64,000 bases of DNA from an uncultured bacterium (GTDB taxonomy: Bacteria; CSSED10-310): positions 89,130 to 153,129 of the forward strand of contig CAYOJK010000007.1 in NCBI GenBank assembly GCA_964404285.1. The letters run 5' to 3'. Of the stretch, positions 2,495-17,159 are shown in pieces. The notes under the pieces were generated by a model, which was not told where the DNA came from, made no database searches, and saw nothing but the letters and a program-made list of their open reading frames with translations. A program made the translations under genes and the position numbers. Positions within the stretch are counted from its first letter, which is position 1, and each line of letters starts with the position of its first letter.

Positions 2495-3895
2495 TTATAT
2501 CCCATCCAAAAACATATCACCGACTTTAGTGACATTGCCGGCGCCTAACGTGATGACAACTGAGTTGGGTTGCACATTTTGTTTTAATAATTGAACAGCA
2601 TTTTCAAAGTCTGTGGCGGCAAAAACTCGCTTGCCATAGCGTTCCCGACAGCGCTCAACCAGTAAATCAGAAGAGATGCCCTGATGTTCCTGCTCTGATG
2701 CGGCATAAACCGGCAGAATAACAAGCATGTCCACACCCTCGAAAGCATCGACGAAATCATCCAGAAAAAACTTGGTTCTGGAAAACCGATGAGGTTCAAA
2801 AACGGCAATGATCGGCTTGTTCTGCCAATTTTTCAATGTCTCCAAAGTAGCTTTGATTTCTGTAGGATGATGCGCATAATCATCAATAATTAAAACACCT
2901 TTTTCGGAACCCTTCAGCTCCATTCGACGTCGGACTCCCTGATAGCTTGCCAGAGCCTGTTTGATACATTCCGGCGAAATCATCAATTGAAGCCCGACTC
3001 CAATAGCCGCCAAGCTGTTCAAAAGCATGTGTTTTCCAGGCGCCGGCAGTGTAAACAACCCTAGTGATTTAGATTGTAAATAAACTTCAAACGTCTGATG
3101 GTCATCGGAAGCTGATACGGGAACTCCCACCAGATCGTTGTTTTTGCCCAAACCGTATTTTAAGACGCGACGTCTATAGGTTCTAATAAGACTGCGTATA
3201 TTCGAATCATCTCCACATACAACGGCTGTACCGAAAAAGGGCACTCGATCAAGAAAGTTCCGAAACGTCCCTATTATTTCTCCAATGTCACGATAGTGAT
3301 CTAAGTGATCTTCTTCGATATTGGTAACCACTGCAATCTCGGGTGTCAGATGCAAAAAACTCGCATCACTTTCATCGGCTTCAGCTACCAAATAACTCCC
3401 GGCCCCCACCCTGGCGTTAGCTCCGATATTTCTGGCGTTTCCACCGATAATGACAGTGGGATCCAACTCGGCACAGCTCATTACCAACGCTATAAGTGAT
3501 GTCGTCGTCGTTTTGCCGTGTGTGCCTGCAACTGCAATCCCCGTCTGAAACCGCATTAACTCAGCCAGCAACTCAGCACGACGAATCACGGGAAGCCGCG
3601 CACGCCAGGCTGCAAGAATTTCCGGGTTGTCATTGCGAACCGCCGATGTATGAACAACCACATCAGCAGTTTGGATTTGCTCAGCACGATGGCCGATGAA
3701 AACATTTGCGCCCAATTGTTCCAGGCGTTTGGTTGTCGGCGAATCCTTAATATCAGAACCTTGAACATTAAAGCCAAGATTCAACAAAATCTCCGCCAAA
3801 CCTGACATGCCGACTCCACCTATTCCGACAAAATGAACCGTCTTAATTTTACCCGAAAACCATGGTTTTGAACGCATTTTTGTTTCCTCGATCAA
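2495..3895 (-). CDS. murC: UDP-N-acetylmuramate--L-alanine ligase
   Basis: It has the N-terminal GIGGVGMSGLAEIL motif and the Mur ligase central GTHGKTTTTS motif. It is 466 aa. Confidence 0.95.
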   Translation of the reverse strand: MIEETKMRSKPWFSGKIKTVHFVGIGGVGMSGLAEILLNLGFNVQGSDIKDSPTTKRLEQLGANVFIGHRAEQIQTADVVVHTSAVRNDNPEILAAWRARLPVIRRAELLAELMRFQTGIAVAGTHGKTTTTSLIALVMSCAELDPTVIIGGNARNIGANARVGAGSYLVAEADESDASFLHLTPEIAVVTNIEEDHLDHYRDIGEIIGTFRNFLDRVPFFGTAVVCGDDSNIRSLIRTYRRRVLKYGLGKNNDLVGVPVSASDDHQTFEVYLQSKSLGLFTLPAPGKHMLLNSLAAIGVGLQLMISPECIKQALASYQGVRRRMELKGSEKGVLIIDDYAHHPTEIKATLETLKNWQNKPIIAVFEPHRFSRTKFFLDDFVDAFEGVDMLVILPVYAASEQEHQGISSDLLVERCRERYGKRVFAATDFENAVQLLKQNVQPNSVVITLGAGNVTKVGDMFLDGI

Positions 3896-12902: not shown

Positions 12903-14183
12903 TTGAGATTATTCTCATCGACGTCTGATCTTGATCACCATCCTGGAGGTTTGTTTATGATTAGATCACCCAATCGTTCAATTATTCTGCTGTCTGGATT
13001 ACTGTTTGTAACCTTGGTCTTTTTTTCATGTTCCAACCAGGATTCGGCAAGTATATCCTCTGATGTATCTTCCTCTGAAAAAGCTGAAAATATTTCTATC
13101 GCTGGCTCAACAAGAGCTAAATCTGCTGCTGAGAACGGTCCTCGTATTGTGTTCGATGAAACCACTCATGATTTTGGACGGCAGTTATCCGGTGAAGATT
13201 TGGAAAATATTTTTACCTTTACAAACAAAGGTGACGGAACACTGATAATCGAAAACGTAAAAGCCGGGTGAGGATGCACGGCAGCTCTGGTTTCCACCAG
13301 AGAAATTCCTCCGGGTGAGGAAGGAAAAATCAAGGTTACGTTTAAAACAGCTCATCGTACCGGTATTAATAGACACAGCGTCACGGTCACTTCTAACGAT
13401 AAAACCAGTCCGAATATGCAACTCGAGGTTGTTGCCGACTTGTACCACTTGCTAACAGTAGCGCCAACAAGACAATGGTTTGGACAGGTTAAGCAGGCTG
13501 AAGAAACAACCCGCCAATTCGTTTTTGAGGGTTTGAAAGTTAACGAGGTTGAATTCACCAGTCTCAAATTGAAAGATGAGTTGAAAAACCAGGATGCTTA
13601 CACCTGGAAGATCAACGATGCAAAAACTGATGAGACTCGCCAACTGACTTTAGATGTAACCGTCCATGGAGATAAAATTCCTCCTGGTCGTTTTGGTGAT
13701 GTGCTGATTATCGAAACAAATCTGGAGCCGACAGTTACCCTGGAATTAGTTTTGACCGGAGAAATTCTTGGACCTGTTTCAGCAAATCCACAACGATTGT
13801 ATTTCGGCCAATTTGAGATAGACAAAGAAATGGAAAGTGTCCTCAAATTGATAGCCAATACCGATATTCCATTCAAAATTCTTTCAGCTTCTATTGAGGA
13901 TTCGGAGTTCAAAATTGATTCCTGGAATCGTGAATCTCTCACTGAACATTCGTTGACAATCCGCTTTTTACCTAAAGAGACTCGAGATAGAATACGCACA
14001 TCTCTATCGATAAAAACAGACCTGGAATCTCAACCAAACCTGGAAGTTGAAATTCACGCTTATCAACGTAGAACCGGTCAGGCGAGAGACATGAAACAAA
14101 TGGATGCTCGAAGTCTGACATCATCCATAAAAGAATCTGACAGTAGTTCAGTCATTAAGACTCGTAAATTAAACGATAATTAA
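12903..14183 (+). CDS. DUF1573-family exported lipoprotein with an in-frame TGA (candidate selenocysteine) at 13269..13271
   Basis: A TTG start is followed by the lipobox FFSC. The DUF1573 core is HDFG...FTFTNKGDGTLIIENVKAG-TGA-GCTAALVS...IPPGEEGKIKVTF. A single TGA interrupts one continuous frame, so ORF-track entries 12903..13271 and 13416..14183 are co-frame. The sequence after the TGA is still conserved. Confidence 0.6.
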
Positions 14184-14231
14184 TGCAGTTAACGTGAAGT
14201 GATAACGAATATCGCTTTTTGAGAGAGACAA

Positions 14232-15302
14232 GTGAAAAATAATGTACTAAACATGTTTATCCGCGTCAGTTGGATGATTGCTATAGTGACCTGTATGGCC
14301 ATCGTAAAAGGATCTGACATCCCAGGTGAAAAGTCACCTGGGATTGCGTTCGACACAGTGGACCATGATTTTGGTGATCAGGTTTCAGGAAAAATTCTAA
14401 AGCATACATTTACCTTTAAAAACTTGGGGGCGACCCTCTTCTCCATTAAAGATGTAAAGGCTGGGTGAGGATGTACTGCTGTCCTGGTATCATCCAGTGA
14501 CATTCCTCCGGGTGAGGAAGGAAAAATTGACGTTGCATTCGACACCCAGTATCGATCGGGAAAAAATACGAAAACCATTACAGTTCGAACTGATGACCCG
14601 AACAACACCCATGTACAATTATCGGTGACAGCAAATCTCGATCTTCAACTGGATTCTACGCCCCGGCGATTGTGGTATGGGAAGTTAAACGGACCAAATC
14701 CGGAAACACGTTCCTGCACACTATCAGGATCTCGTATTGAAGAACTCGAAGTAAAACAAATAAGAATAGATGGAAATATCCCTGAAAAAGCTTTTTCTTG
14801 GCTACTAAACGATCAACGGGATTCAGGTAAAGCAGTAACGCTCGATGTGACATTTTATCCTGATGAGGCCATACCCGGAAGATTTCTTCATCAATTGATC
14901 ATTGAGACTAACTTGATCGATACGCCGGAATTAGTTGTCAGCCTGGCTGGAGAACTTACCGGATTTCTGTATTCATCACCATCAAGCGTATTATTTGGTA
15001 ACTTTGAAACGGGTGTCTCCATGAAAAAAACCGTCACTATTCAAACCTATCAAGAAATTCCGTTTTCAATAATTTCAGTTGACTCCGCTGATTCAGATAT
15101 TTCTATTACATTAGACAATGATCAGAAATCTCTGGAACACGTTATTGCTGTGCTCTTTGAACCAAGTGAAGATCGATCGGATATCCTTCAAACACAGATC
15201 AAGATAACGACGGATCTGGAAAAACAATCGGATTTTCTTCTGGATATTCATGGTTTTCCTAGACGGGCACAAAAAATATTACCGCCTCGTGATCAGAAGT
15301 AA
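14232..15302 (+). CDS. Second DUF1573-family exported protein with an in-frame TGA (candidate selenocysteine) at 14466..14468
   Basis: It is a paralog of the upstream gene with the same VKAG-TGA-GCTA context. ORF-track entries 14232..14468 and 14625..15302 are co-frame. It has a signal peptide and a conserved IPPGEEGKI downstream of the TGA. Confidence 0.6.
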
Positions 15303-15376: not shown

Positions 15377-15449
15377 GCCGAGGTAGCTCAGTCGGCAGAG
15401 CGAGGGACTGAAAATCCCTGCGTCGGGGGTTCGATTCCCTCCCTCGGCA
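15377..15449 (+). tRNA. tRNA-Phe (anticodon GAA)
   Basis: It folds as a cloverleaf. The acceptor stem GCCGAGG/CCTCGGC is a perfect 7 bp. The anticodon loop is CTGAAAA, the T-loop is GGTTCGATTCC, and the discriminator is A. No CCA is encoded. Confidence 0.9.
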
Positions 15450-17062: not shown

Positions 17063-17159
17063 GGGAGCGGGTGGTGTCTGGTGATGCCTCCGGTCTTCAA
17101 AACCGGTATGGGGTCTTAAAAGGGTCCTAGGTGGGTTCGATTCCCATGCGCTCCCGCCA
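17063..17159 (+). tRNA. selC: tRNA-Sec (selC), anticodon UCA
   Basis: It is 97 nt with a long variable arm, the anticodon stem-loop CCGGT-CTTCAAA-ACCGG (anticodon TCA, which reads UGA), a GTGGG-TTCGATT-CCCAT T-arm, a long 7-8 bp acceptor stem, a G discriminator and an encoded CCA. The acceptor pairing at position 8 is imperfect (G-G) in my fold. Confidence 0.8.

Follow-up and report, generated by a model that had tools for sequence, protein, structure and literature searches.

Introduction

The minimal selenocysteine insertion sequence (SECIS) of Escherichia coli fdhF is a 17-nucleotide (nt) upper hairpin that lies 11 nt after the UGA codon and carries a GGUC loop and a bulged U. In eukaryotes, a distant SECIS is assisted by the selenocysteine (Sec) redefinition element (SRE), a hairpin within the coding region immediately downstream of UGA. 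For bacterial SECIS (bSECIS) elements, the bSECISearch consensus (Zhang & Gladyshev 2005, as summarized in PMC13188914) specifies an apical loop of 3-9 nt, a stem of 4-16 base pairs (bp), a UGA-to-loop distance of 16-37 nt, at least one G among the first two loop nucleotides, mostly with G or U after it, and a folding free energy (ΔG) no higher than -7.5 kcal/mol. A stem of 6-8 bp with a conserved loop G ~20 nt downstream of UGA is usual (PMC4605307), and some bSECIS elements do not conform to the consensus (PMC13188914). DUF1573 proteins with a 'UGC' motif are already listed as a prokaryotic selenoprotein family (PMC9312934, PMC13188914), so that a DUF1573 selenoprotein is not in itself new; the entries for the family in both sources trace it to a metagenome study of Olavius algarvensis symbionts (PMC1976440). 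Here we analyze a candidate SECIS in two tandem DUF1573 genes, gene 1 and gene 2, both on the plus strand of a 64,000-nt stretch of DNA from an uncultured bacterium of the lineage CSSED10-310 (contig CAYOJK010000007.1 of assembly GCA_964404285.1, positions 89,130 to 153,129; 'the window').

The two genes resemble the published DUF1573 UGC selenoproteins in belonging to the same family, PF07610, and in having the presumptive Sec residue at the same site, the first cysteine (Cys) of the C-G-C motif. They differ in coming from another uncultured lineage, in being tandem paralogues beside selC, and in carrying a C-terminal extension of ~250 amino acids (aa). A preliminary description of this DNA proposed, as the SECIS, a hairpin (hairpin B, below) within a 26-nt string that is identical in the two genes. 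Our comparative analysis favors a wider reading, namely that this string is the distal half of a ~38-nt element of two hairpins, A and B, which stands at a fixed distance after UGA and serves as the SECIS of both genes; we give this reading a probability of roughly 0.78. The element would thus add one more case of a known signal, within a selenoprotein family already described and in a poorly studied lineage, with a bipartite layout that is a possible variant of that signal.

Two hairpins at fixed distances after both in-frame UGA codons

The genes, the UGA codons and the elements downstream of them are as follows (window coordinates, all plus strand).

12957-14183, +: gene 1, predicted DUF1573 selenoprotein, 408 codons; Sec is codon 105, motif KAG-U-GCTA
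13269-13271, +: in-frame UGA of gene 1 (predicted Sec codon); alignment counterpart of the first Cys in S-C-G-C-T
13285-13302, +: hairpin A of gene 1, CUCUGGU/UUCC/ACCAGAG, 7-bp stem; starts 13 nt after UGA
13305-13330, +: first copy of the 26-nt string ATTCCTCCGGGTGAGGAAGGAAAAAT; begins 34 nt after the gene 1 TGA
13306-13322, +: hairpin B of gene 1, UUCCUC/CGGGU/GAGGAA, perfect 6-bp stem; encodes (I)PPGEE
14232-15302, +: gene 2, predicted DUF1573 selenoprotein paralogue, 356 codons; Sec is codon 79
14466-14468, +: in-frame UGA (predicted Sec codon) of gene 2, from translation and alignment
14480-14502, +: hairpin A of gene 2, UGUCCUGG/UAUCAU/CCAG(U)GACA, 8 bp with one bulged U
14502-14527, +: second copy of the 26-nt string ATTCCTCCGGGTGAGGAAGGAAAAAT; begins 34 nt after the gene 2 TGA
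14503-14519, +: hairpin B of gene 2, UUCCUC/CGGGU/GAGGAA, perfect 6-bp stem

The string ATTCCTCCGGGTGAGGAAGGAAAAAT occurs exactly twice in the 64 kb, at the two positions above; no other site matches it with three or fewer mismatches, and none of 100 shuffles contains a match. It is also the longest stretch of identity between the paralogues, the next longest runs being 11, 11 and 10 nt. With 38% identity between the two proteins and 48% between the two DNA sequences, and with the next runs only 10-11 nt long, the identity of the paralogues at this site is local and does not extend across the domain. The preliminary description had reported the duplicated string and had placed hairpin B, a perfect 6-bp stem with a G-rich loop, 35-51 nt after each TGA; string, coordinates and fold are all exactly as it gave them.

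Together the two hairpins cover the interval 14-51 nt after TGA, with 0-3 nt between A and B. Hairpin A, the minimum-free-energy (MFE) fold in gene 1, has a ΔG of -10.0 kcal/mol there and of -9.5 kcal/mol in gene 2, and hairpin B has a ΔG of -6.5 kcal/mol. The existence of a second hairpin with compensatory changes had likewise been proposed, and both parts of that proposal hold, the second hairpin in fact carrying most of the covariation described below; its characterization as the weaker of the two is reversed by these values.

RNA-level selection on both hairpins

Conservation and covariation were evaluated in 22 distinct Sec-type sequences, comprising the two window copies and 20 further orthologues or paralogues from at least 10 metagenomic genomes. 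Eleven of the 22 are of the syntenic gene-1 type, ten are of the gene-2 type, and one (L013_g1) is a non-syntenic paralogue. Look-ups of exact proteins supplied most of the orthologues; a genome-collection scan with a narrow alignment contributed two genomes, and a metagenome scan one locus. The alignment, A5, is gap-free from 15 nt before to 89 nt after TGA, and its columns supply the pair and base numbers used in the text (33-48, G36, G60 and so forth). The TGA and both hairpins are kept in 22/22 sequences with no insertion or deletion. Unguided folding of the 22 gapless sequences with RNAalifold returns exactly hairpins A and B. In this structure 89.3% of alignment cells are paired, vs. 43-61% when the 3' partners are slid along the alignment. 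The covariation score is 0.292, vs. 0.164 ± 0.015 for shuffled alignments, and was reached by 0 of 500 shuffles.

Changes on both sides of a pair occur at four pairs, and most of the covariation sits in hairpin A, where pairs 32-49, 33-48 and 34-47 covary, having changed independently at least 4-8 times on the tree. In pair 33-48 the third base of an Ala or Val codon meets that of a Lys, Arg or Ser codon; this pair is UA in seven sequences, CG in six, GC in three and UG in two; the four mismatches are all in gene-2 copies, three of which fold alternatively with a bulged U. Pair 34-47 ties the synonymous Leu codons CUG and UUG to Arg or Ser and to Lys (CG 15, UA 7) without exception. In hairpin B, pair 57-65 ties the Pro codons CCU and CCC to GAG and GGG (CG 12, UA 9, UG 1). 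Among the gene-2 orthologues, GUC/GAC in hairpin A gives way to GUU/AAC or GUG/CAC. When the tree is inferred from flanking protein sequence only, with the codons of the element left out, pairs 33-48, 34-47 and 57-65 require at least eight, four and three independent state changes, respectively, and some of the changes fall between close relatives, for example between gene 1 of the window and gene 1 of locus L002. The preliminary description had named, as a result that would count against it, orthologues that keep the peptide and lose the pairing; the orthologues keep both, through compensatory change.

The two hairpins are conserved in different ways. Hairpin A has its six-pair core (32-37 with 44-49) intact in 18/22 sequences, and its loop is free in both sequence and size (UUCC, GACA, UACG, UAUCAU, CAACGU; site entropy 1.6-1.8). 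Hairpin B has 98.5% of cells paired, with all six pairs present in 21/22, and is almost invariant in sequence; its loop is CGGGN, and G60, the third and synonymous position of a CCG codon, is invariant in 22/22.

At codons -1, +6, +9, +12, +14, +16 and +17 relative to the UGA, the entropy of the third position is 0-0.27 bits; Gly, Thr and Ala codons of equal conservation that lie outside the element have 1.4-1.9 bits. The frozen choices are GGG at codon -1 (21/22), NUG for Leu at +6 (always), NCC at +9, AUU at +12 (18/18), CCG at +14 (22/22) and GAA at +17 (21/21). Such conservation could, in principle, be a by-product of a conserved peptide (ALVS..EIPPG[E/G]EGKI) and codon bias, with no RNA function. 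The peptide is part of the conserved DUF1573 core; its Pro-Pro-Gly codons, CCN CCN GGN, are self-complementary, with an alternative small hairpin present at this site in the Cys homologue L018; and AUU, GAA and AAA are preferred codons in the window. The observed frequencies nonetheless exceed what this account supplies. Synonymous codon sampling at window codon usage yields an in-register hairpin B in 3-4% of samples, or ~1% if CCG is also required, and hairpin A in 2-8%, against 21/22 and 18/22 observed. CCG, at 24% usage, stands in 22/22 sequences, and GGG, at 12% usage, in 21/22 and 13/13. The covariation, moreover, links synonymous sites to each other (33-48) and synonymous choices to amino-acid changes (34-47, 57-65). 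We therefore regard a peptide by-product as very improbable, and the earlier statement that the identity goes beyond what the shared peptide needs is borne out by the frozen synonymous sites within the hairpin, their free neighbors, and the 3-4% chance expectation for hairpin B.

A covariance model trained on the 20 other sequences, with the window copies left out, detects only the two window sites in 64 kb, at 82.4 and 74.9 bits. Applied to Cys-type genes, the same model scores 21.7 bits for L018, in which 5/13 in-register pairs are broken, and 11.3 bits for L016; four Bacteroidota DUF1573 plasmid genes (L019-L022) have no comparable hairpins. The broken register in L018 and the lack of hairpins in L019-L022 also speak against the peptide alone as the source of the structure, within a Cys-type control that is thin, consisting of L016, L018 and the four distant plasmid genes.

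A different process, recent gene conversion between the tandem paralogues, could account for the identity of the two window genes with no selection on RNA. CCU/GAG is otherwise typical of gene 2, and among gene-1 orthologues only those of the window and L002 have it, the others having CCC/GGG; a short gene 2-to-gene 1 tract in the ancestor of the window and L002 would have moved both sides of pair 57-65 at once. No conversion is seen beyond ~26 nt, however: the paralogues share 48% of their DNA sequence and have gene-specific codons at the flank (KIKVTFKT vs. KIDVAFDT), so that the domain-wide conversion named in the preliminary description as a refuting result is not found. The element and its frozen synonymous sites are present in the 20 other sequences, and because it is conserved across at least 10 genomes, conversion within one genome is refuted as a full explanation. 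In addition, L006_g2 has at pair 57-65 the single U-G, the intermediate expected from stepwise compensation. Conversion in place of RNA selection is thus quite unlikely; a micro-conversion of ~26 nt, from gene 2 to gene 1 in the window/L002 ancestor, is a possible explanation for the 26/26 identity of the window copies. We conclude that both hairpins are under RNA-level selection.

Four smaller observations concern the same stretch of RNA and its Cys-type counterpart. The Gly codon directly before UGA is GGG in nearly all sequences, as given above for codon -1, though GGG is the rarest Gly codon of the window. RNAalifold also puts the UGA inside a mini-hairpin of G-C, U-A and G-C/U pairs (window 13266-13279 and 14463-14476; A5 columns 10-29). 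All variable synonymous sites near it are unpaired in this fold. Covariation cannot arise there, and both a structure and an effect of UGA context are conceivable. The Pro-Pro-Gly encoded by hairpin B (window 13308-13316 and 14505-14513) lies 14 codons after UGA and is conserved in 21/22; Pro-Pro-Gly stalls ribosomes in the absence of EF-P. In L016 (positions 3257-3290; P0019, GCA_964518865.1, from another lineage) an unrelated 10-bp hairpin with a 14-nt loop starts 19 nt after the Cys codon, and may be either coincidental or the remnant of an earlier SECIS.

Comparison with the bSECIS consensus and with described elements

The element agrees with the bSECIS consensus in location, lying within coding sequence, right after an in-frame Sec-UGA, in 22/22 sequences, and in evidence of covariation, that is, of a structure under selection. 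Both hairpins have stems and loops of consensus size (6-8 bp with a 4-6 nt loop for A; 6 bp with a 5-nt loop for B). The loop-G rule is obeyed by hairpin B in 22/22 (C-G-G-G-N) and is broken by the MFE fold of hairpin A in most sequences (UUCC, UUCA, UAUCAU). Conversely, the UGA-to-loop distance is 19-20 nt for A, within the range of 16-37 nt, and 40 nt for B, 3 nt beyond it. The ΔG threshold of -7.5 kcal/mol is reached by hairpin A in 21/22 sequences (mean -10.2 kcal/mol). Hairpin B has a ΔG of -8.6 to -8.9 kcal/mol in its CCC/GGG forms, of -5.6 to -6.8 kcal/mol in most CCU-type forms, and of -3.6 kcal/mol in L002_g2 (UCU) and L003_g2; the whole two-hairpin element has a ΔG of -13 to -26 kcal/mol. 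No single hairpin satisfies all constraints of the consensus: A is in the right place without the conserved loop G, and B has the right loop at too great a distance.

In overall type, a coding-region stem-loop right after a Sec-UGA, with a small apical loop, a 6-8 bp stem and a Cys/Sec pair among homologues, the element is like a consensus bSECIS; it differs in consisting of two adjacent hairpins, 0-3 nt apart, in place of one stem-loop. Rfam yielded no match in 13200-14600 at E values up to 10, and only tRNAs across the window at the gathering score; because both scans gave none, no curated bacterial SECIS model was available for comparison.

The element also resembles the E. coli fdhF SECIS. 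Hairpin A has a similar length and starts 13 nt after UGA (11 nt in fdhF), its G-G-U falls at positions 21-23, counting from the U of UGA (22-24 in fdhF), and its gene-2 versions have a single bulged U. The differences are that this bulge lies in the 3' strand and in some gene-2 copies only, that the G-G-U of hairpin A is base-paired in the predicted fold, that loop A is not conserved, and that fdhF has no counterpart of the second, sequence-invariant hairpin B. The eukaryotic SRE offers a looser parallel, in which two RNA structures share the work, one next to UGA and one with the factor-binding determinants; it belongs to another domain of life, with other factors and with the SECIS in the 3' untranslated region, and the likeness is one of analogy only, not of homology.

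These comparisons bear on whether hairpin A alone might be the SelB-binding SECIS, with hairpin B an accessory, either a clamp or insulator for the fold of A or an SRE-like element affecting pausing or efficiency. Hairpin A is within 2 nt of the fdhF geometry. It also holds most of the covariation, is the more stable hairpin, and has invariant G36 and G37 at +18 and +19, of which G36 is a free synonymous site; and a suboptimal fold, a 5-bp stem with an 8-nt loop starting at G37, agrees with the consensus in loop size, loop G and spacing. With its start 13 nt and its top 18-25 nt after UGA, hairpin A further fits the description of a 6-8 bp stem with a conserved G at ~20 nt (PMC4605307). Against this, the MFE loop of hairpin A has no conserved unpaired G and varies in sequence and length at unconstrained synonymous sites. 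SelB-SECIS recognition, in the E. coli and Moorella complexes, rests on extruded loop G and U bases. The near-total sequence invariance of hairpin B, G60 included, would be left unexplained as well. On this evidence we consider it rather unlikely that hairpin A acts alone.

A bipartite element with a proposed division of labor

In our view the SECIS is most probably the unit formed by both hairpins together. The suggestion that these genes contain a bacterial SECIS is thereby strengthened, by the match of UGA to Cys, the adjacent tRNA-Sec gene, the presence of both hairpins in 22/22 sequences, and the compensatory change from CCU/GAG to CCC/GGG. The narrower suggestion that hairpin B is the SECIS calls for correction: hairpin B is a conserved hairpin, and the element is bipartite, with hairpin A at the canonical site and loop B 40 nt from UGA.

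For the two parts of the unit we propose that hairpin A, in which selection acts on pairing alone, serves as a structural spacer and that hairpin B, in which it acts on sequence, is the SelB docking hairpin. We put this assignment at even odds and the reverse one, with SelB on hairpin A and hairpin B as an accessory, at half that weight, the remainder falling to contacts with both hairpins or to something else. With UGA in the ribosomal A site, the messenger RNA just outside the entry channel would fold as hairpin A and then as hairpin B. Hairpin B, whose CGGGN loop is invariant, would be a sequence-specific dock for the C-terminal winged-helix domains of SelB, which would carry Sec-tRNASec, the product of a tRNA gene 1.8 kb downstream. 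Hairpin A would act as a collapsible spacer whose folding takes ~20 nt out of the path. The unpaired path from UGA to loop B with A folded would then be 13 + 3 + 6 = 22 nt, near the canonical ~20 nt; because folded hairpin A removes ~20 nt, loop B would effectively lie ~22 nt from UGA. SelB would outcompete RF2, and UGA would be read as selenocysteine. SelB binding, the division of labor and Sec insertion are, in this scheme, inferred from sequence. In favor of the assignment, loop A is variable, and loop B keeps its G at a free synonymous site in 22/22 and obeys the consensus loop-G rule.

Several observations weigh against this reading of the element. Loop B, at 40 nt after UGA, is outside the range of 16-37 nt and at twice the usual ~20 nt (PMC4605307), and it is hairpin A, not B, that occupies the canonical position. 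The top pair of hairpin A, G36-C45, consists of two free synonymous sites and is invariant in 21/22, which hints at a base-specific constraint on A as well. Hairpin B in its CCU/GAG form is, taken alone, at -6.5 kcal/mol, above the threshold of -7.5 kcal/mol. Its sole covarying pair spans 8 nt, a distance over which micro gene conversion could move both sides, and the codons of the Pro-Pro-Gly...Gly peptide it encodes are intrinsically self-complementary, with another small hairpin at that site in L018. Single-sequence folding z-scores are unremarkable (-0.7 to -1.9), and since they are not significant, the significance of the element comes from the comparative data. Finally, no further selenoprotein gene of the lineage turned up in the window or the fetched related loci that would show what its SelB recognizes.

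Three other structural or coding explanations were considered and rejected. A helix between UGAGGA, at the Sec codon, and the 5' strand of hairpin B is not conserved in the CCC variants; loop-loop kissing of A and B would involve loop A positions that are variable; and an overlapping antisense open reading frame (ORF) does not fit conservation that is limited to ~40 nt.

More tentatively, and at somewhat less than even odds, the element may represent a distinct bipartite class of bSECIS, with hairpin A as a foldable spacer and hairpin B (CGGGN, 40 nt from UGA) as the SelB docking site. If this class exists and is general in CSSED10-310 and its relatives, SECIS-based selenoprotein finders would miss or mis-assign such elements, and the SelB of the lineage would tolerate or require an unusual geometry. 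The comparative data also yield a 22-sequence set and a covariance model for SECIS elements in a little-known candidate phylum, and a well-supported, testable example of a SECIS outside the published consensus. Beyond these points, the feature is one expected in a known selenoprotein family.

The UGA codons replace a conserved cysteine of DUF1573

Translation of gene 1 shows a single in-frame TGA, and a GGAGG lies 7 nt ahead of its ATG. Both genes match Pfam PF07610 (DUF1573) across the TGA: in gene 1 with an E value of 4.8e-26 over residues 64-153, with the TGA inside the domain, and in gene 2 with an E value of 9.5e-26, the domain spanning the TGA. Cys homologues (P0016, P0017, P0019 and many others) have the first Cys of S-C-G-C-T at the UGA site; full-length distant homologues read KAS-C-GCTA where the genes here read KAG-[TGA]-GCTA, and ~70 further Cys-type matches carry [ST]-C-G-C-T. 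The UGA thus stands in for the first Cys of the C-G-C motif, because full-length homologues have Cys there. With PF07610 membership, UGA at the first Cys and Cys homologues, both genes are predicted members of the DUF1573 selenoprotein family with the UGC motif.

The 15 closest database proteins, at 44-99% identity in the alignments, are all truncated, and the top match is the C-terminal fragment of the window gene itself. Nine of the 15 start at an artificial M, L or V five residues after Sec, and the other six start further downstream; the in-frame TGA is present at every fetched locus that encodes them. Public gene calls (window 12957-15302 and loci L002-L015) all split each gene into an N-terminal piece of ~75-110 aa and a C-terminal piece of 255-333 aa, the latter with a false M, L or V start that is non-conserved and lies within the domain, just after UGA or further downstream. 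In NCBI records the C-terminal fragment is named 'DUF1573 domain-containing protein'. One related locus belongs to a metagenome-assembled genome of candidate division CSSED10-310 from Zodletone spring, the nearest named genome.

The split annotation, with two ORFs per gene, is what would be expected if the UGAs were true stops or were read through independently of Sec, so that the genes were split genes or pseudogenes and the hairpins served termination, readthrough or reinitiation. A search for Sec factors in the window, which found no SelA, SelB or SelD in the 20 large ORFs scanned, points the same way. Several findings contradict such an account: the TGA is in frame in 22/22 sequences with protein conserved on both sides and one Pfam domain across it, it stands where homologues have a conserved Cys of a C-x-C motif, each locus of sufficient length has a tRNA-Sec gene beside the two genes, the family is already listed as a selenoprotein family, and the 'C-terminal ORFs' begin at non-conserved M, L or V codons inside the domain. 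We regard stops or Sec-independent readthrough as scarcely credible. For annotation, this implies that both tandem genes and their counterparts in at least 10 metagenomic genomes are intact selenoprotein genes that are now split in public calls.

Two further observations concern the family. A third Sec paralogue, with the motif RSG-U-GCTG, occurs at L013 2983, L014 2132 and L015 510 (JGI 3300077993, 3300077521 and 3300077746), in a different neighborhood (a CarboxypepD_reg-like gene and an SSF transporter) and with no tandem partner; it has the same two hairpins. P0030, a 276-aa translation of a Logan contig that contains HKEIPPGEEGKIKV, was considered as a fusion protein and rejected, being a frameshift-ridden assembly of a gene-1 orthologue.

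A tRNA-Sec gene and conserved gene order at the locus

One further feature of the window belongs with the selenoprotein genes.

17063-17159, +: tRNA-Sec gene (selC), anticodon UCA; found by ARAGORN and by Rfam (RF01852, 76.6 bits)

The selC gene, whose product would be the partner of the element in trans, lies 1.8 kb downstream of both selenoprotein genes, between genes for a TRAM/RumA-type methyltransferase and an aspartate kinase, and a tRNA-Phe gene lies just after gene 2 (window 15377-15449). The placement of selC and the tRNA-Phe gene are conserved in every related locus long enough to show them; selC is at 7107-7203 in L002, 5086-5182 in L005, 6813-6909 in L006, 6718-6814 in L008, 6729-6822 in L009 and 6860-6956 in L011. 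Among the 20 large window ORFs scanned, out of 32, none was selA, selB or selD. A scan of the window for in-frame TGA codons flanked by long open stretches returned only the two DUF1573 genes, and the same scan of the fetched related loci returned nothing credible.

The usual gene order, which holds in most loci, is FtsZ-like, MraZ and amidohydrolase genes on the minus strand, followed by the two DUF1573 genes, tRNA-Phe, the TRAM/RumA-type methyltransferase gene, tRNA-Sec and the aspartate kinase gene. The N-terminus of the gene 1 product, MIRSPNRSIILLSGLLFVTLVFFSC (window 12957-13040), is signal-peptide-like and contains a possible lipobox Cys, and that of the gene 2 product is likewise hydrophobic; given such N-termini, the two predicted selenoproteins may be exported or membrane-anchored.

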